From NCBI GenBank assembly GCA_021787665.1, contig JAJYLN010000006.1, positions 7,912-71,911 on the forward strand: a stretch of 64,000 nt of DNA. The letters are read 5' to 3'. The notes beneath the pieces are model-generated. The model did not search any database, had not been told where the DNA came from, and saw only the letters and a list, made by a program, of their open reading frames with translations. The position numbers and the translations under genes are program-made. Positions 10,155 through 45,035 of the stretch are shown piece after piece. Origin of the DNA: a bacterium. Its GTDB lineage: Bacteria; JAMCPX01. Position 1 is the first letter of the stretch. Every line of letters starts with the position of its first letter.

Positions 10155-11039
10155 TTATACCGTAAATACGAGAGCGGGCTGCAACGTCTGCGGAGCAACG
10201 ATCGCCTTTTTCTCCATGAAGGAGGCGATCTTATTTACAAACATATGGTTGAGCGAATGACCACTCTTGTAGCTTGTTATATGACCTTTCAACGAGCCGC
10301 CGAGCGTATACAGGTCTCCCAGCATATCGAGGATCTTATGTCGAACAAACTCATCCCTGAACCGCAAGCCGTCGGTATTCATAACGTCCTTCTCGTCGAG
10401 TACCACGGTATTTTCCATGGATGAGCCTCGTGCAAGCCCGAGGGCCTGCATCGTGGTATAGTCCTTCAGAAAACCGAACGTCCTCGCCTTTGCAAGTTCG
10501 GAATAAAAATGTTCCGGAGAGTTGTGGTACGTATACTGCTGTCTGCGTATCCTGGGGTGATTAAAGTCTATGACGCCGTCTATGATAAGGGTACTCGCCG
10601 GCGTGTATTCTATGTACCCCGTATTGTGCTCGACTCTTACGGTATTATCTAGAAGGATATTTTCTTTTTGGGCGGTGAGCGTGAATATACCCGCGTCGAG
10701 TATTGCGTCCGCAAACAGAGACGCACTGCCATCCCCGCCAGGGACCTCGTCTCCTTCGACCTCGATTATCGCGCTGTCCACACCAAAGCCATGCAAGGTA
10801 CTGAGGAGGTGTTCTACCGTAAAGACTACGAAGTCGTCGTTCCCAATCGTCGTAGCGAACATCGTGCTTTTGACCTTGCTGGAACTCAGCGGAAGGTACC
10901 TCAGGACGTTCCCGACTTTCTTGACGAATAATATACCATCCTTCTCCGAGGCTGGATGTATTATTATTCTCGAAAATTCGCCGGTATGCAGCCCATACCC
11001 CGCACACACAATCCTTTTTTTCAATGTCCTCTTAAACAT
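10155..11039 (-). CDS. lpxC: UDP-3-O-acyl-N-acetylglucosamine deacetylase
   Basis: GYGLHTG, TVEHLLSTL, DGSA, ARTFGF, LARGSSMEN, EFVRHKILDMLGDL, KSGHSLN. Start placed at ATG 11039 (MFKRTLK). Confidence 0.95.
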   Translation of the reverse strand: MFKRTLKKRIVCAGYGLHTGEFSRIIIHPASEKDGILFVKKVGNVLRYLPLSSSKVKSTMFATTIGNDDFVVFTVEHLLSTLHGFGVDSAIIEVEGDEVPGGDGSASLFADAILDAGIFTLTAQKENILLDNTVRVEHNTGYIEYTPASTLIIDGVIDFNHPRIRRQQYTYHNSPEHFYSELAKARTFGFLKDYTTMQALGLARGSSMENTVVLDEKDVMNTDGLRFRDEFVRHKILDMLGDLYTLGGSLKGHITSYKSGHSLNHMFVNKIASFMEKKAIVAPQTLQPALVFTV

Positions 11040-11052
11040 CGGACAAAAATAA

Positions 11053-11068
11053 AGCAATCATCATGCCA
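11053..11068 (-). promoter_or_regulatory. Sigma54 -24/-12 promoter of lpxC
   Basis: Minus strand TGGCATGATGATTGCT: GG-N10-GC in TGGCA...TTGCT context, 14 bp upstream of the ATG. Confidence 0.72.
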
Positions 11069-11085
11069 ATTAAAGTGTTACTATA

Positions 11086-11098
11086 TATCAATCAGTTA
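11086..11098 (+). promoter_or_regulatory. IHF-binding site
   Basis: TATCAATCAGTTA matches WATCAANNNNTTR and lies between the sigma54 box and an upstream palindrome. Confidence 0.55.
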
Positions 11099-11119
11099 AC
11101 TCGATAGGCCGATTCAGAT

Positions 11120-11137
11120 TGTGATGCTAAAATCACA
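11120..11137. promoter_or_regulatory. Palindromic upstream activator site candidate for lpxC
   Basis: TGTGAT-GCTAAA-ATCACA, a perfect 6-6-6 palindrome about 80-95 bp upstream of the predicted start site. Confidence 0.5.
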
Positions 11138-11204
11138 CCTTTTACCGATATATTTGATACGGGGGGGGCAGTTCGTAAACCGCTCCTGCTTTTCGATCGT
11201 GGTA

Positions 11205-11552
11205 TTATGCCACATGAATATGCAACGGAGCTCCGCCCACAACATGGAGGTGGATGTGGTATATGCTCTGGCCTCCCCATTGCTTAACATTAAACACGGC
11301 CTTAAAGCCTTTTTCTGAGATGCCCGTCTTGTCTGCCATCTCTTTAGCCACCAGCATAATTTTCCCCAGTAGTACCTGATCCTGCGGTGTTATGTCGGTA
11401 AGCGTGGGAATGTGCTTCTTGGGGATTATCAAAAGGTGCACCGGAGCGACCGGGTGAAGGTCCTCTATCACGACGACATCGCTGTCTTCGTATACTTTCT
11501 TGGAGGGTATTTTCCCTCCTATGACCTGGCAGAATATGCACGTGTCCATCAT
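11205..11552 (-). CDS. Histidine triad (HIT) nucleotide-binding protein
   Basis: CIFCQVI, DLHPVAPVHLLIIPKKH, HIHLHVVGG; SD AGGAG. Confidence 0.95.
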   Translation of the reverse strand: MMDTCIFCQVIGGKIPSKKVYEDSDVVVIEDLHPVAPVHLLIIPKKHIPTLTDITPQDQVLLGKIMLVAKEMADKTGISEKGFKAVFNVKQWGGQSIYHIHLHVVGGAPLHIHVA

Positions 11553-11614: not shown

Positions 11615-12277
11615 TTACAAGGACTGGAACGGGAACGCCTGAATATCTTTTTTTGCCGCGACCCCCATGGTAAGGATAAGTTTGAATGCCTCCTCAATGG
11701 ATATATTGAGCTCGAACAGGTTTTGCTTTTGTACAAAAAGGAAGAAGCCCGAGGTAGGGTTCGGTACTGTCGGGACAAACACGGTAATGCTCTCTCGATC
11801 CTGGGCCGGGCCATTGATCTCGGCCTTACCTACGACGAAACCTACGGCATAGCTGCCCGCCCTCGGGAACTCCACGAGCACCACATGGTTGAATTGCCTC
11901 CTGTTCTCGGTGAAGGCGTCCGTGATCTGCTTTGCTCCATGATAGATGCCTTTAATGAAGGGAATATTCGAAAATACATCCCCCATCAAGTTCAATAGCT
12001 TCTGCCCCATATAGTTATAGGTCATCAGCCCCATGATGAAGATCAGAACAATGGCAATGACAACGCTTATGCCCTTTATCGGTATGTATGTCTGGGGGTT
12101 TATGACACTCGGCAGTATGTTCAGCAGGCTGTCAGACCACGAAACCACGATCTTGAGGATAAAAATCGTGATGATTATGGGGATATAGACAGCTATGCCG
12201 GCTATAAAGATGTTCCGTATCCTGACACTGAGCTTTTTTTTGATCCGGCTTATCTGTGGGATTGAACTATTCAGCAA
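11615..12277 (-). CDS. DUF502 family membrane protein
   Basis: FIAGIAVYIPIIIT, IPFIKGIY, VLVEFPR, VFVPTVPNPTSGF. Confidence 0.9.
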   Translation of the reverse strand: MLNSSIPQISRIKKKLSVRIRNIFIAGIAVYIPIIITIFILKIVVSWSDSLLNILPSVINPQTYIPIKGISVVIAIVLIFIMGLMTYNYMGQKLLNLMGDVFSNIPFIKGIYHGAKQITDAFTENRRQFNHVVLVEFPRAGSYAVGFVVGKAEINGPAQDRESITVFVPTVPNPTSGFFLFVQKQNLFELNISIEEAFKLILTMGVAAKKDIQAFPFQSL

Positions 12278-12665
12278 AGATGTCCTCTTCTATGGAGCCT
12301 TTCTCGTTTTCTATATATGATACCAGATAAGTTCTGCTTTGCTCGTCGAGTTTCAGGAACTTTATACCCATTCCCGGGAGGGCATTGCTGGTTGGCTCTG
12401 TACCGGGCACATACCGGTGCGACCATATGACCTCTCCCTTTGTCTCGATAAGCTTTATCGCCCCCGGTAACCTGAACCGTATGTCGAGCAGCAGGCCTTT
12501 TTCGAGAGGTGCTTCCGTTTGAATGAGAAAACCGCCTACACTTATATCGGTAGTATAATCTATCTTAAAATTATTGCCTCCTTCTATCGATAGGAGCACC
12601 GGTATGCATATCAGTTTTCTTTGACGCTTCCTTGCCCGATGTAACAGATTCAACTCATCGTTCAT
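12267..12665 (-). CDS. Single-domain PilZ protein (c-di-GMP receptor)
   Basis: RKRQR (RxxxR) and DISVGG (DxSxxG) motifs, followed by GEVIW...PGMGIKF. Confidence 0.88.
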   Translation of the reverse strand: MNDELNLLHRARKRQRKLICIPVLLSIEGGNNFKIDYTTDISVGGFLIQTEAPLEKGLLLDIRFRLPGAIKLIETKGEVIWSHRYVPGTEPTSNALPGMGIKFLKLDEQSRTYLVSYIENEKGSIEEDIFAE

Positions 12666-14910: not shown

Positions 14911-15017
14911 TACGCGGATACTTTTCTGCTCACACCATTATACATGGTTGTCACGGCGTAGTGCAATAACTCGTACATCACACCTAACGCTATAAAAGTA
15001 AACTTTAAGAACCACAT
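14880..15017 (-). CDS. Unannotated 45-aa small protein with hydrophobic N-terminus
   Basis: MWFLKFTFIALGVMYELLHYAVTTMYNGVSRKVSAYLYKPNKGQA*. SD AAGGGAGG 8 nt upstream and a sigma54 box just upstream. Below the ORF-track cutoff. Confidence 0.6.
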   Translation of the reverse strand: MWFLKFTFIALGVMYELLHYAVTTMYNGVSRKVSAYLYKPNKGQA

Positions 15018-15055: not shown

Positions 15056-15071
15056 TGCATTTTATGTGCCA
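15056..15071 (-). promoter_or_regulatory. Sigma54 -24/-12 promoter candidate
   Basis: Minus strand TGGCACATAAAATGCA (GG-N10-GC). Predicted start near 15045, upstream of the SD of the 45-aa ORF. Confidence 0.6.
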
Positions 15072-40771: not shown

Positions 40772-42958
40772 TCACTTCGAAACTATGGTGTTCTTGTTTG
40801 CACTGTCCGGCCTCGAGATGATCCCGTCCTTCTCCATCTTCTCGACCATACGCGCGGCCCTGTTATACCCCACCCTAAGCCTCCTCTGGATCAGGGATAT
40901 CGACGCAGAGCCGCTCTCCTTTATTATTTCAAGCGCCTTGCCGTACAGCTCGTCCGCGAGGCCGTCGTCTGCTGCATTGTCCTGCTCCTGCTGCTCCTCT
41001 ATCCGTATCTCGTACGCCGGCTTGCGCGTCTTCTTGAGGTACTCCGTCACACGGACCACCTCCGCGTCCGACACATAGACGCCGTGTACCCGCACGGGCT
41101 GCGAGCCTCCCGGCGGTATGAACAGCATGTCCCCGGCGCCGAGCAATTCCTCCGCGCCGGATTGGTCCAGGATTATCCTCGAGTCCGTCTTCTGGGGCAC
41201 CTTCAGCGCTATCCTCGACGAGAAGTTGGACTTGATCGTCCCGGTGATCACGTCCACGGACGGCCTCTGGGTCGCAAAGATGATGTGTATGCCGGCAGCA
41301 CGCGCCTTCTGGGAGAGCCGGATGATGTATTCCTCGACTTCCTTCGGCGCGGTGAACATAAGGTCGGACAGCTCGTCTATGATAAGCACGATCTTCGGCA
41401 GCTCAATCGCCTCGGCGTCGTCCAGCTTTTGTGACCTTACCATCTGGTTGTACACTGAAATGTTGCGGGCCCCTGCCCTGTTGATAGTGCTGTACCGTCT
41501 GTCCATCTCCTCCGTGACCCACCGGAGAACGGAGGTTGCCTTCTTCGGCTCTGTTATCACCTCGTGCAACAGGTGCGGTATATCATTGTACGGCGAGAAC
41601 TCCAGCATCTTCGGATCCACCAGTATGAACTTCAGTTCGTCCGGGGTTGCCTTGAACAGCAGGCTCATAATGATGGCGTTCATCGTGACACTCTTGCCGG
41701 AGTTCGTGGAGCCGCCTATCAGGAGGTGCGGCATCTTCGCGAGGTCCGCAACCACCGGCTCGCCGGTCGTGTCCACCCCAAGGCAAACCGTGAGCATCGA
41801 GGAGCTCTCGCGGAACCGCTTCGACTGGAAGACCTCCTTGAGGTACACGATCCTCCTCGAGGCGTTCGGCACCTCGATGCCGACGGCCGACTTGTCCACC
41901 ACGTGCGCCTGGATGCGTACGCTGGGGACCTTCATGGCAAGGGCGAGATCGTCCGAGAGGTTCATGATCTGGCTCACCTTGACACCGGGTGCCGGCTCAA
42001 ACTCGTACATCGTGATGACCGGGCCGGGCCGGATATTCGTCACCTTGCCGTTCACATTGAAGTCTGCCAGCTTCTTCTCGAGAGTACGGGCATTGAACTG
42101 GAGCGTCCCGGTATCGTACTCGATGTCTCTTGCCTCGTAGTCATCGAGCAGGGTCAGGGAGGGCTTCTTAAACTCGCCGGGCACAGCCTTGAAAAGCTCC
42201 TCCTGAACCGGCTCCGGCGCCCGGTGCTCTTCCTTGGGAAGGGGCTCCGGTCCTTTCTTCGGCGGCTGGATCACGATGTCGTGCTCCTTGTCCTTGATGC
42301 CGAGCCGCTCCCGGATCCTCCTCTGCTTCTCCCTCCATACCAGAATACCGGTACCCAGCCTCTTTACAGCGCCGGCCACGAACCCCATGCTCAAGGCGAA
42401 CAGGTGCGTGATGGGCCTCCTGATCAGAAGGACGACAGCTATGAGCATGAGTGTTACCGCGACCATGATCGTGCCCGTGTTTCCGATGTAAGGATGCAGC
42501 TTCAGGGTCAGCAAATAGCCGATCACTCCGCCCGGCCCGGGATTACGCAGGCTTGCGGACTGGAACATTGATACCTCCTTGTGAACGGAGACGGGCGTCC
42601 GGCTGACGATCGCTGTGACGGTAAATGAAAGCGATACGATAAGGATCAGCAGCCCGGTAACGTGCGTCCAGCGATGTTCCCATCGGTCCTTCAGGAGCAC
42701 GGCGAAAAAAACCATAATGCCGGCAATGCCAACCAGGTAGCCCGACCACCCGAATATCAGGCGCAGCAGGTCGGACAGGTTTGCGCCGATGCGGCCAGCC
42801 ATGTTGTGGTATACCGACATACCGGTCGCATGGAACATGGTGGGGTCCCGTACGTCGTAGGAGAACAGACTCAGCAGGACGAATATCGAGAAAGCAAGGA
42901 TCAGTAAGGCAACGATGTCCTTCCCTATCCCGTTGCTTTTGCTGTTGGGCGAGGCCAT
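40772..42958 (-). CDS. ftsK: DNA translocase FtsK
   Basis: 4-TM N-terminus, PGPVITMYE, HLLIGGSTNSGKS, VDPKMLE, IIDELSDLM, ARAAGIH, QRPSVDVITG, gamma domain. ATG 42958 overlaps the rpoN stop (TAATG). Confidence 0.96.
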   Translation of the reverse strand: MASPNSKSNGIGKDIVALLILAFSIFVLLSLFSYDVRDPTMFHATGMSVYHNMAGRIGANLSDLLRLIFGWSGYLVGIAGIMVFFAVLLKDRWEHRWTHVTGLLILIVSLSFTVTAIVSRTPVSVHKEVSMFQSASLRNPGPGGVIGYLLTLKLHPYIGNTGTIMVAVTLMLIAVVLLIRRPITHLFALSMGFVAGAVKRLGTGILVWREKQRRIRERLGIKDKEHDIVIQPPKKGPEPLPKEEHRAPEPVQEELFKAVPGEFKKPSLTLLDDYEARDIEYDTGTLQFNARTLEKKLADFNVNGKVTNIRPGPVITMYEFEPAPGVKVSQIMNLSDDLALAMKVPSVRIQAHVVDKSAVGIEVPNASRRIVYLKEVFQSKRFRESSSMLTVCLGVDTTGEPVVADLAKMPHLLIGGSTNSGKSVTMNAIIMSLLFKATPDELKFILVDPKMLEFSPYNDIPHLLHEVITEPKKATSVLRWVTEEMDRRYSTINRAGARNISVYNQMVRSQKLDDAEAIELPKIVLIIDELSDLMFTAPKEVEEYIIRLSQKARAAGIHIIFATQRPSVDVITGTIKSNFSSRIALKVPQKTDSRIILDQSGAEELLGAGDMLFIPPGGSQPVRVHGVYVSDAEVVRVTEYLKKTRKPAYEIRIEEQQEQDNAADDGLADELYGKALEIIKESGSASISLIQRRLRVGYNRAARMVEKMEKDGIISRPDSANKNTIVSK

Positions 42959-44313
42959 TAGGATGCTTTCACCTTGCGGAGGTGAATGGGGGCTATGTTC
43001 ATGATCTCGCGGTATTTCGCCACCGTCCGTCTCGCTATGTTGACGCCGTCCGTCTTCAGTACCCGCACGATGTCCGTGTCCGAAAGAGGTGAACAAGCGT
43101 CCTCCTTCTCGATGAGGTCTTTGATCCTCTGCTTCACGATCTTCGTTGAGAGGAGATCCCCGCTGTCCGTCCTCAGCGAAGGACTGAAGAAGTATTTCAG
43201 CTCATAGATGCCCCACGGGGTCTGGACATACTTGCCGTTCGTCACCCTGCCCACGGTGGTCTCGTGAATACCGATATCGTCGGCAATATCCTTCAGGACC
43301 ATCGGCACGATGTACTGCTCTCCGTACTCGAAGAAGTCCCGCTGCCTGGCCACGATCGCTTCCACCACTTTTCTGATCGTGTTCTTCCTCTGCTCTACGG
43401 CCTTGATGAGCCACTTCGCACCCTGCATCTTCTCCCTGATGAACCTCTTTGCATCGTCGTCGTTGCTGCACTCGGTAAGCAGCTTCCTCGCGTAATAGTC
43501 CGAGGCGGCCAGGCGCGGAATGCCGTCCTCGATCAGGTCAACGATCAGACGATCATCGCGCTTCATCACCATGACGTCCGGAATAATGTAGTCGTCCTCC
43601 ACGGAGCTATAGGTATAGCCGGGCTTGGGGTTCAGATGGGAAATGGTGTTCGCAGCCGTGATCACGAGGTCCACGGTAACGGACAGCGCCCTGGCTATCG
43701 TCGGGTAGTCCTTTCTCTGGAGGTCGGCAAGGTGGTCCGAGATAATGCTGCTTATCACCGGTTCGTCTATCCCAAAATAACGTATCTGGATCAGGAGGCA
43801 TTCCTTCAAGTCCCGTGCGCCCACGCCGGACGGGTCGAATTCCTGGACCTTCTTCAGGACGTTCTCCACGCCGTTCGTATCGGCACCGGTAAACGATGCG
43901 ATGTCTTCCACGGAAGTCGTGAGGTAGCCCTCGTCATTAATGTTGCCGATTATCGCCTCGCCGATCTGGACCTCCAGGTCCGTGTTCGCGGAAAGGCTGA
44001 GCTGCCACAGCAGGTAATCGTGCAGCCCCATGTCCCGGTGCGTCATGTTTTCGATGGGGTCTTCCTCCCTCCTCGACAGAGACCTGTGCTCTCCGCCCGC
44101 CGGTGTGCCGGCGCCCACGGTCACGTTCACGTCTCCCTCTGCCGTCTCATGTTCAGCCTGCTCTTCCTCAAGAAACGGGTTTGCTTCGAGCTCGGTCTTG
44201 AGCTCCTGCTCGAGCTCGAGCCTCGTCAACTGGAGCAGCCGGAGGGCCTGGATCAACTGAGGCGTCAGCTCGAGCTGCTGCCTCAGGCTGACCTCATGCT
44301 TCAGCTCTATCAT
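42958..44313 (-). CDS. rpoN: RNA polymerase sigma-54 factor
   Basis: Q.L..TPQL.QA..LLQL, HETTVGR, RpoN box ARRTVAKYRE. Confidence 0.97.
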   Translation of the reverse strand: MIELKHEVSLRQQLELTPQLIQALRLLQLTRLELEQELKTELEANPFLEEEQAEHETAEGDVNVTVGAGTPAGGEHRSLSRREEDPIENMTHRDMGLHDYLLWQLSLSANTDLEVQIGEAIIGNINDEGYLTTSVEDIASFTGADTNGVENVLKKVQEFDPSGVGARDLKECLLIQIRYFGIDEPVISSIISDHLADLQRKDYPTIARALSVTVDLVITAANTISHLNPKPGYTYSSVEDDYIIPDVMVMKRDDRLIVDLIEDGIPRLAASDYYARKLLTECSNDDDAKRFIREKMQGAKWLIKAVEQRKNTIRKVVEAIVARQRDFFEYGEQYIVPMVLKDIADDIGIHETTVGRVTNGKYVQTPWGIYELKYFFSPSLRTDSGDLLSTKIVKQRIKDLIEKEDACSPLSDTDIVRVLKTDGVNIARRTVAKYREIMNIAPIHLRKVKAS

Positions 44314-45035
44314 AGCTTAAAGTCCTCTCCCAAATAAATACGTCGTGCATTCTCGCTCATCGCTATTTGTTTCGGCTCTCCCTCCTCTATGATCTTGCCG
44401 TTATTTATAATATAGGCTTTATCGCAAACATTCAAGGTTTCCCTGACGTTGTGGTCCGATATGATGATCCCGAGCCCGTTCGCCCGCAGGGATAAAAGAA
44501 TCTCCCTGAGCTCGTTTACCGCTATGGGGTCGATGCCGGCGAAGGGTTCGTCGAGCAGCATGAAAAAGGGGCTTGCGGCAAGCGCCCTCGAGATCTCGAC
44601 CCTCCGCCGCTCTCCCCCTGACAGGGAATAGCCCATGCTCTTCCTCAGGGGCAGTATGTGCATGCTCCTCATGATGTCTTCCGTCTTCTCATGGGCGACA
44701 TCGCTCCCCAAGTTCATCGACTCGAACACCATCTTGATGTTGTCTTCGACCGAAAGCTTCCTGAAGATCGACGGCTCCTGCGGGAGATACGTTATACCCT
44801 TCCTTGCCCTTACGAACATCTGGTCCCCGGTGATGTCTCCGCCGTTCAGTACGATCGTACCCTTATCCGGCCTGTACACGCCGACAATCATGTAGAACGT
44901 CGTCGATTTTCCGGCCCCGTTCGGTCCGAGAAGCCCGATGATCTCGCCGCTCTTCACCGAGAAACTCACATCGGAAACGACCGTCTTCCTGCCAAAAGAT
45001 TTCTTCAGCCCAACCGCTTCAAGCCGGTAATCCAT
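44310..45035 (-). CDS. lptB: LPS export ABC ATPase
   Basis: GPNGAGKST, YLPQEPSIFRKL, LSGGERRRVEI, DEPFAGIDP, DHNVRETL. Confidence 0.97.
   Translation of the reverse strand: MDYRLEAVGLKKSFGRKTVVSDVSFSVKSGEIIGLLGPNGAGKSTTFYMIVGVYRPDKGTIVLNGGDITGDQMFVRARKGITYLPQEPSIFRKLSVEDNIKMVFESMNLGSDVAHEKTEDIMRSMHILPLRKSMGYSLSGGERRRVEISRALAASPFFMLLDEPFAGIDPIAVNELREILLSLRANGLGIIISDHNVRETLNVCDKAYIINNGKIIEEGEPKQIAMSENARRIYLGEDFKL

Follow-up and report, generated by a model that had tools for sequence, protein, structure and literature searches.

A predicted enhancer-dependent sigma-54 promoter directly upstream of lpxC, conserved across an uncultured bacterial phylum

LpxC controls the flux through lipid A synthesis and serves as an antibiotic target; its textbook control is proteolytic (FtsH/LapB). 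The question raised by the locus described here is whether transcription of lpxC may be placed under sigma-54 and a bacterial enhancer-binding protein (bEBP). The locus lies in a 64,000-nucleotide stretch of contig JAJYLN010000006.1 (hereafter, the window), which belongs to a 2.25-Mb metagenome-assembled genome from mine drainage (G000). An initial annotation had described a complete set of sigma-54 promoter elements ahead of its lpxC gene. This gene, present in one copy in the genome, encodes a 294-aa UDP-3-O-acyl-GlcNAc deacetylase (10155..11039, minus strand; Pfam LpxC 1e-87; TIGR00325 281 bits against a 187-bit cut-off) and is separated by 165 nt from an upstream gene of the HIT family (11205..11552, minus strand; HIT/DcpS_C domains). 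Based on comparison of sequences across the phylum, we consider it probable that this spacer holds an enhancer-dependent sigma-54 promoter dedicated to lpxC.

Predicted promoter elements in the HIT–lpxC spacer and their conservation

All of the elements listed in the initial annotation were confirmed at their positions, and in the correct order, when the spacer was read on the minus strand. This order consists of a C8 homopolymer (G8 on the plus strand; 11161-11168), a perfect 18-bp palindrome TGTGAT-N6-ATCACA (11120..11137), both read directly from the sequence, an IHF-like site, a -24/-12 box and the lpxC ATG. The -24/-12 box, TGGCATGATGATTGCT (11068-11053, minus strand), has its GG at 11067-11066 and its GC at 11055-11054, which is the canonical spacing. 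It matches 9 of the 10 fixed positions of the sigma-54 consensus used in this work (TGGCAC-N5-TTGCW, with the GG and GC doublets exactly 10 nt apart). The palindrome, which represents the candidate upstream activator sequence (UAS), is centred 61 nt upstream of the -24 GG, corresponding to approximately -86 from the predicted transcription start. The IHF-like site is an exact match to the consensus of integration host factor (IHF), TATCAATCAGTTA on the plus strand (11086-11098) and YAANNNNTTGATW / TAACTGATTGATA in the minus-strand reading (11098-11086). It is located inside a 52-nt AT-rich spacer and ends 17 nt before the TGG of the promoter. The palindrome, the IHF site and the -24/-12 box co-occur in the right order within 85 nt.

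The comparison set comprised 13 species-level genomes and covered the whole phylum, with 12 members of the family and one genome of a sister family (G012); the LpxC proteins encoded by these genomes are only 45–86% identical. The palindrome (as GTGAT-N6-ATCAC), the -24/-12 box and the ATG were found in all 13 genomes in one shared order. The initial annotation had named conservation upstream of lpxC orthologues as the check to be made; the palindrome and the -24/-12 box are retained in 13 of 13 genomes, whereas conservation is weak for the IHF site and lacking for the G8 tract. The box reads TGG[CT]A[CT]-N5-TTGC at the orthologous position in all 12 family genomes and GGGCAC-N5-TTGC in G012. 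In the alignment of the 12 family genomes, from which G012 was left out, the mean pairwise identity reaches 1.00 for the -12 TTGC (also kept in G012, the 13th genome), 0.93 for the palindrome arms (9 of 12 columns invariant) and 0.84 for the -24 box. The corresponding values are 0.58 for the IHF 13-mer, 0.54 for the 6-nt palindrome centre, 0.46 for the other 69 spacer columns and 0.47–0.52 for third codon positions in the flanking genes.

The geometry of these elements is also fixed. The palindrome centre is spaced 60–62 nt from the GG throughout the family (12 genomes), as against 111 nt in G012. In each of the 13 genomes, the -12 C precedes the A of the ATG by 14–17 nt (14 nt in the window, where this C is position 11054). 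An inverted repeat some 70–150 bp upstream of a promoter at conserved phasing is the arrangement that marks a bEBP enhancer, and the locus presents such a layout. Changes in the palindrome affect single arms only, as in GTGAC...ATCAC in L010 and GTGAT...GTCAC in G012. Because the arms are kept as sequence and show no compensatory changes, the palindrome would correspond to a protein site on DNA and not to an RNA hairpin. The possibility of an RNA hairpin or terminator was rejected on these grounds and because no T-run is present, and an Rfam search of the HIT–lpxC spacer matched no family.

The DNA between the UAS and the promoter is 64–79% A+T across the genomes, and a role for the IHF site in bending it is weakly supported by the comparison. 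The G8 tract is not part of the element, since the approximately 45-nt stretch that holds it was found only in this genome. This stretch, located in 11141-11200 between the HIT stop codon and the palindrome, resembles a lineage-specific insertion.

Taken singly, each of the motifs is close to chance expectation in a 64-kb window. The strict sigma-54 pattern has one match against 0.12 expected and was seen in 12 of 100 shuffles, the palindrome with one mismatch allowed has one match against 0.15 expected (15 of 100 shuffles), and the IHF consensus has four matches against 1.97 expected. It is their ordered co-occurrence and, above all, their conservation that are not due to chance. These single counts would be compatible with a chance constellation, or with conservation on unrelated grounds (DNA structure or a mobile-element remnant, for example), but we find such an explanation scarcely credible because the motifs stand out as footprints against the diverged background of the 13 genomes. 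Furthermore, a metagenome scan with the composite motif identified at least two further contigs among 80 loci fetched; both belong to family members and carry lpxC immediately downstream. Among the matches listed, LpxC was not detected at the remaining 78 of these 80 loci, which probably represent chance hits. The experimental precedent in Desulfovibrio, discussed below, also argues against coincidence.

The -24/-12 box could be read in a different way, with “TGGYATGAT” serving as an extended -10 sigma-70 promoter (TGnTATAAT-like), the palindrome as the operator of an ordinary dimeric repressor or activator, and no involvement of sigma-54. Several relatives read TGGTATGAT, one mismatch from TGnTATAAT, and the TGTGA/TCACA half-sites are reminiscent of CRP/FNR-type operators. 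However, the invariant columns are the GG and the TTGC at the exact sigma-54 spacing, with the -12 box identical in 12 genomes and retained in the 13th, whereas the key positions of the supposed -10 hexamer are variable, with CACGAT in G002, TATGAA in three genomes and CACAGA in G012. The half-sites, TGTGA-N8-TCACA, are separated by N8 and not by the N6 of CRP sites, and no partner -35 element was found at 16–18 nt. A sigma-70 promoter at this position is accordingly very improbable.

Our preferred reading of the spacer is a sigma-54 promoter with its enhancer. With its own sigma-54 promoter and an upstream activator site, lpxC would be governed at the level of transcription by an enhancer-binding protein. 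In the mechanism that we propose, sigma-54 RNA polymerase would bind TGGCAT-N5-TTGC (11068-11053) as a closed complex, and a dimeric or oligomeric bEBP, most likely a phylum-wide response regulator of the NtrC family, would bind the palindrome 61 nt upstream of the GG. The AT-rich DNA with its IHF-type site would bend and bring the activator to the polymerase, and ATP hydrolysis by the activator would open the promoter. Transcription would then start approximately 0–6 nt before the lpxC ATG, giving a leaderless or near-leaderless message translated without a Shine-Dalgarno (SD) interaction. A two-component signal would thereby set lipid A flux through transcription, in the way shown for lpxC and its regulators DVU2934/Dde_3003 in Desulfovibrio. 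With no terminator to stop transcription from the HIT gene, read-through may contribute a basal amount of lpxC transcript in the family. The initial annotation had gone further in proposing that lipid A flux is switched by an enhancer-binding protein; control by a bEBP is strongly supported by the footprinting, but “switched” is too strong for a gene that no terminator separates from its upstream neighbour.

Start codon, predicted leader and read-through from the HIT gene

The ATG at 11039 represents the real start of lpxC, since in all relatives the protein is conserved (MFKRT...), with synonymous changes, from its first codon onwards, no conserved alternative in-frame start was found among them, and the Pfam LpxC model starts at residue 3. 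The start codon is ATG in 13 of 13 phylum genomes. Based on geometry only, transcription is predicted to start in the zone 11039..11045 (minus strand), with the canonical +1 at 11042, 12 nt after the C of the GC. This agrees with the start at about 11042, some 3 nt from the ATG, that was predicted in the initial annotation. The predicted leader would measure approximately 3 nt in the window and 3–6 nt in the relatives, with an overall zone of 0–6 nt; purines usable as starts are located 10–15 nt past the -12 C.

No SD-like 4-mer was found in the 20 nt before the lpxC ATG, and the genome-wide SD peak is located 8–14 nt before start codons. We compared this arrangement with approximately 20 other candidate sigma-54 promoters of the genome, which were chosen by eye among 174 pattern-filtered hits and are followed by an SD-like stretch and a start codon. 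In these, the box is separated from the start codon by approximately 15–45 nt that include an AG-rich SD-like stretch, and against this hand-picked set lpxC is the only candidate sigma-54 promoter without room for a leader. Another good sigma-54 box was observed in the window itself at 15056-15071 (minus strand; G000:C19:22967), where TGGCACATAAAATGCA is followed by AAGGGAGG and by an ATG at 15017 that opens a small open reading frame (ORF).

Among the genes of this organism that lack an SD, -10-like hexamers (TANNWT) are slightly over-represented at a position 12 nt ahead of the ATG (18 against approximately 5), a pattern suggestive of leaderless messages. Leaderless mRNAs characterised elsewhere, with the -10 boxes of Deinococcus-Thermus (PMC12340547) and the leaderless-mRNA transcription start sites (lmTSS) of S. 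meliloti (PMC3616915), likewise combine a fixed short distance from promoter to AUG with the lack of an SD. Those cases use -10 boxes of the sigma-70 type, whereas the predicted lpxC promoter is of the sigma-54 type with a start expected 0–6 nt before the AUG. No sigma-54-driven leaderless mRNA is described in the literature that we examined, which is not proof of absence. If the near-leaderless geometry is true, lpxC would provide a natural case of a sigma-54 promoter fused to a start codon.

The lpxC gene ends a co-directional gene cluster, and the genes that follow converge on it. Its adjacency to the HIT gene is kept in 12 of 12 family genomes, and the HIT stop codon lies only 9–25 nt from the palindrome in the 11 family relatives. 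A sigma-70-like site was identified ahead of the HIT gene (11579-11551), and neither a terminator-like site nor a sigma-70-like promoter was found on the minus strand of the spacer (11040-11204). In G012, lpxC and the neighbouring ORF, which by eye only resembles thymidylate kinase, are transcribed divergently; the spacer of this genome also has a weak sigma-70-like match (9 of 12 positions).

These features of the neighbourhood suggest an alternative in which lpxC is expressed mainly by read-through from the sigma-70 promoter of the HIT gene and the sigma-54 site and palindrome act chiefly in a negative manner, with read-through roadblocked or tuned by a regulator or closed complex stably bound there. 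Such a role would fit the missing terminator, the sigma-70-like site and the short distance from the HIT stop codon to the palindrome, as well as the expectation that a transcript starting 3–6 nt before the ATG is a poor translation substrate by E. coli standards. The D. alaskensis kinase mutant, which raises lpxC, also indicates a system that is normally held down. However, read-through cannot supply lpxC in G012, because the neighbour is divergent there, and the -24/-12 box and palindrome are kept nonetheless. The fixed 60–62 nt phasing between palindrome and promoter corresponds to the need for contact between activator and polymerase, whereas a roadblock needs no such phasing, and the mapped lpxC start in Desulfovibrio is located just downstream of the sigma-54 site. 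Based on these observations, we regard expression mainly by read-through as unlikely.

Several observations nevertheless weigh against a dedicated sigma-54 promoter. With no terminator after the HIT gene, part or most of lpxC expression could be due to read-through, and the metatranscriptomes of the source study contained no reads from the lpxC locus; searches of RNA runs found none for the two relatives examined. The IHF match is exact only in this genome, with 1–4 mismatches in the same register in the relatives, so that its conservation is weak. No bEBP gene was identified on the contig of the window, and none adjoins lpxC in the family. The exact sequence GTGAT-N6-ATCAC has two matches in the genome, including the one at lpxC, against 1.66 expected. 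The other match has a 1045-aa ORF and several small ORFs around it, and inspection of 600 nt there revealed no sigma-54 box; since this match fits chance, lpxC looks like the sole target, as in Desulfovibrio. The missing SD at lpxC is not diagnostic because about half of the genes in this genome, by a crude count, have no recognisable SD. Finally, a 3–6 nt leader gave poor leaderless translation in E. coli (Krishnan et al. 2010, as cited in PMC3616915). Either transcription would start at the A of the ATG, or translation of lpxC would be deliberately inefficient.

Sigma-54 factor and candidate activators

The window encodes sigma-54 itself, the factor in trans on which such a promoter would depend. 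The rpoN gene (42958-44313, minus strand; TIGR02395 437.7 bits against a cut-off of 277) is located immediately downstream of lptB (44310-45035, minus strand; TIGR04406 337 bits), which bears out the placement of rpoN in a lipopolysaccharide (LPS)-export operon of the window by the initial annotation. The genome encodes ten bEBPs, counted as PF00158 proteins with E values of 1e-60 or better, and eight of these contain receiver domains and are thus response regulators. It also carries an IHF-beta gene above the NCBIfam cut-off, an IHF-alpha-like gene just below it and an HU-like gene.

Gene adjacency and sequence similarity were both considered as routes to the activator. Two bEBP genes are located 1–9 kb from lpxC in G012, but the family lacks a clear orthologue of the closer one. 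In the outgroup genome G035, a bEBP gene is also found near lpxC, but there lpxC overlaps its upstream gene and has no sigma-54 box, and this lead was rejected. BLAST best hits were likewise set aside: the NtrC-type paralogues are 40–48% identical to each other, so best hits do not settle bEBP orthology.

We collected 66 bEBP proteins from seven genomes, and conservation of the helix-turn-helix leaves three response-regulator orthogroups that are found phylum-wide (C1:31026-32381, C5:9954-11297 and C28:55473-56855). One of these, represented by G000:C1:31026-32381, keeps the motif ISRENLSRK(I/M)K in the seven sampled genomes, with ISRENLSRKIK in both G000 and G012. Its best model is NtrX, with 475 bits, which is below the 600-bit cut-off, and its gene is co-operonic with that of a 736-aa membrane kinase. 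A clear orthologue is present in the outgroup genome G038, which encodes only four bEBPs and has a sigma-54 box before lpxC. We treat this NtrX-like protein as a lead for the lpxC activator, not as a finding.

A further site related to the lpxC palindrome was observed at G000:C1:18480-18621. It reads GTGAT-N4-ATCAC, with the same half-sites and a spacer that is 2 bp shorter. A sigma-54 box, TGGCACATATAATGCA, follows 120 nt downstream, ahead of a small gene for a single-domain response regulator. The site lies 12 kb from the NtrX-like bEBP gene; the same regulator may have a second target here, or the likeness may be coincidental. Elsewhere in the genome, at G000:C17:245160-250100, the gene for a GAF-type bEBP is followed by three good sigma-54 boxes in succession (C17:246900, 248543 and 250035), all of which lead into an SD and a start codon, an arrangement that looks like a compact local sigma-54 regulon.

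A more far-reaching version of the preferred reading would have lpxC made, across the phylum, only from the sigma-54 promoter, with a start at or near the AUG and a truly leaderless message. Lipid A synthesis and growth would then depend strictly on RpoN and on a single bEBP, possibly the NtrX-like G000:C1:31026-32381, and SD-free translation might hold the potentially toxic LpxC low. We offer this version tentatively and hold it to be rather doubtful. If true, it would provide a way to ask how an essential gene gets tied to an activator-dependent sigma factor.

Comparison with known sigma-54 promoters and lpxC control

Classic promoters with a UAS, an IHF site and a sigma-54 box include K. 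pneumoniae nifH, activated by NifA, E. coli glnAp2, activated by NtrC, and Pseudomonas Pu, activated by XylR. The lpxC spacer agrees with them in the order and spacing of its elements, with the UAS at approximately -86, an AT-rich spacer of the IHF type and GG-N10-GC. The half-sites of the window palindrome are 11 bp apart from centre to centre, like those of NtrC sites. In contrast to the classic cases, the target here is an essential envelope gene and not an operon for nitrogen or catabolic functions, conservation of the IHF site is poor, and no room is left for a ribosome-binding site.

In E. coli, LpxC is controlled through proteolysis by FtsH/LapB, and the gene is transcribed by sigma-70 polymerase at the end of the dcw cluster. 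The enzyme and the need to limit it are the same in both organisms; in the window, lpxC is not part of a dcw cluster and has a dedicated, predicted activator-dependent promoter. We also observed a 459-aa ORF with a LapB-type zinc ribbon (G000:C10:5772-5852; PF18073, 51 bits), which is kept in 12 of 13 phylum genomes; PF18073 also matches Gram-positive control genomes, so the LapB-type assignment is weak. Proteolytic control of LpxC may coexist with transcriptional control in this organism.

In R. sphaeroides, loss of the two-component system NtrYX raised lpxC mRNA 8.8-fold; no NtrX site was found at lpxC, and the effect was judged indirect (PMC7240162). The NtrX-like candidate of G000 resembles that system in matching the NtrX model best and in having a co-operonic kinase, whereas the R. 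sphaeroides effect is indirect and lacks a site at lpxC. A 2011 survey that presents sigma-54 as a controller of the bacterial exterior emphasises LPS and leaves lpxC unmentioned (PMC3162934); the phylum-wide arrangement described here supports this general role of sigma-54.

To place the phylum in a wider context, we analysed an outgroup set of 17 genomes from other phyla for sigma-54 matches at 8 or more of the 10 positions within 300 nt upstream of lpxC. Such a match was found in 5 of the 17, against 0.55–0.97 expected (Poisson P ~3e-4). The loci concerned are L014, L016, L019, L021 and L027, from genomes G029, G032, G033, G038 and G018, respectively. In L019 and L021, an SD-like stretch separates the box from the start codon, and an 18-bp palindrome, TGTATAC-N4-GTATACA, is located 80 nt upstream in L021. 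Control of lpxC by sigma-54 may be widespread outside Proteobacteria-style models.

The closest known systems are those of Desulfovibrio. The initial annotation had contrasted the arrangement with the best-known forms of lpxC control, but sigma-54/bEBP control of this gene has been published for D. vulgaris and D. alaskensis (PMC3333781, PMC4045070, PMC4641369). The only target found for the D. vulgaris response regulator DVU2934 by DNA affinity purification with chip readout (DAP-chip) is lpxC (DVU2917), which was confirmed by gel shift (PMC3333781), and the sigma-54 regulome of this species places the 19-mer of the lpxC promoter at -40 from the start codon (PMC4641369). In D. alaskensis G20, the sigma-54 site of lpxC, CGGCACGATTATTGCT, is located just upstream of the mapped start and the UAS is centred at -101; lpxC is the only gene strongly upregulated on disrupting the cognate kinase Dde_3000 (PMC4045070). 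Desulfovibrio genomes contain two to four 15-bp TGT-N9-ACA sites each (PMC4641369).

The Desulfovibrio systems, with regulators DVU2934 and Dde_3003, and the window share several features. In both, the sigma-54 box lies directly before lpxC, with similar sequences in G20 (CGGCACGATTATTGCT), the window (TGGCATGATGATTGCT) and G002 (TGGCACGATGATTGCT), an inverted repeat of the TGT...ACA type lies approximately 100 nt from the start, and lpxC is apparently the sole target. The activator sites differ: the window has a single 18-bp TGT-N12-ACA, whereas Desulfovibrio has two to four copies of the 15-bp sequence. The window UAS has TGTG/CACA ends in common with the Desulfovibrio sites, spaced 3 bp wider, and does not match the DVU2934 motif. 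We also examined the surroundings of the bEBP genes for an operon of the DVU2934 type, and no HD-GYP gene adjoins any bEBP gene in this genome. A PilZ-domain gene, encoding a receptor for cyclic di-GMP, belongs to the co-directional cluster of lpxC and lies two genes upstream of it (12267-12665, minus strand). By analogy with the HD-GYP phosphodiesterase in the operon of the D. vulgaris regulator, a link between cyclic di-GMP and lpxC through this PilZ gene is conceivable.

The distance between promoter and gene follows the same pattern of likeness and difference. The GC doublet is 14–17 nt from the ATG in the phylum described here and approximately 23 nt in D. vulgaris Hildenborough. If the published positions denote the first base of each site, the Desulfovibrio leaders would also be short, at approximately 12 nt in D. 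vulgaris Hildenborough (19-mer at -40) and approximately 10 nt in G20 (site at -118 from the ATG, UAS centre at -101). A short leader may thus be a trait common to both groups that is carried further here.

The type of regulation at this locus is known but under-appreciated, and the window represents a new, phylum-wide instance of it; we consider this a solid comparative prediction that involves no new mechanism. It carries a little-noticed finding in Desulfovibrio over to an entire uncultured phylum; the matches in 5 of 17 outgroup genomes make a wider reach, into several further lineages, probable. The host differs from Desulfovibrio in belonging to a separate uncultured phylum of 13 species. 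Relative to the Desulfovibrio systems, what distinguishes the arrangement described here is the single-copy TGT-N12-ACA UAS, its occurrence across the phylum and a predicted promoter that abuts the start codon.

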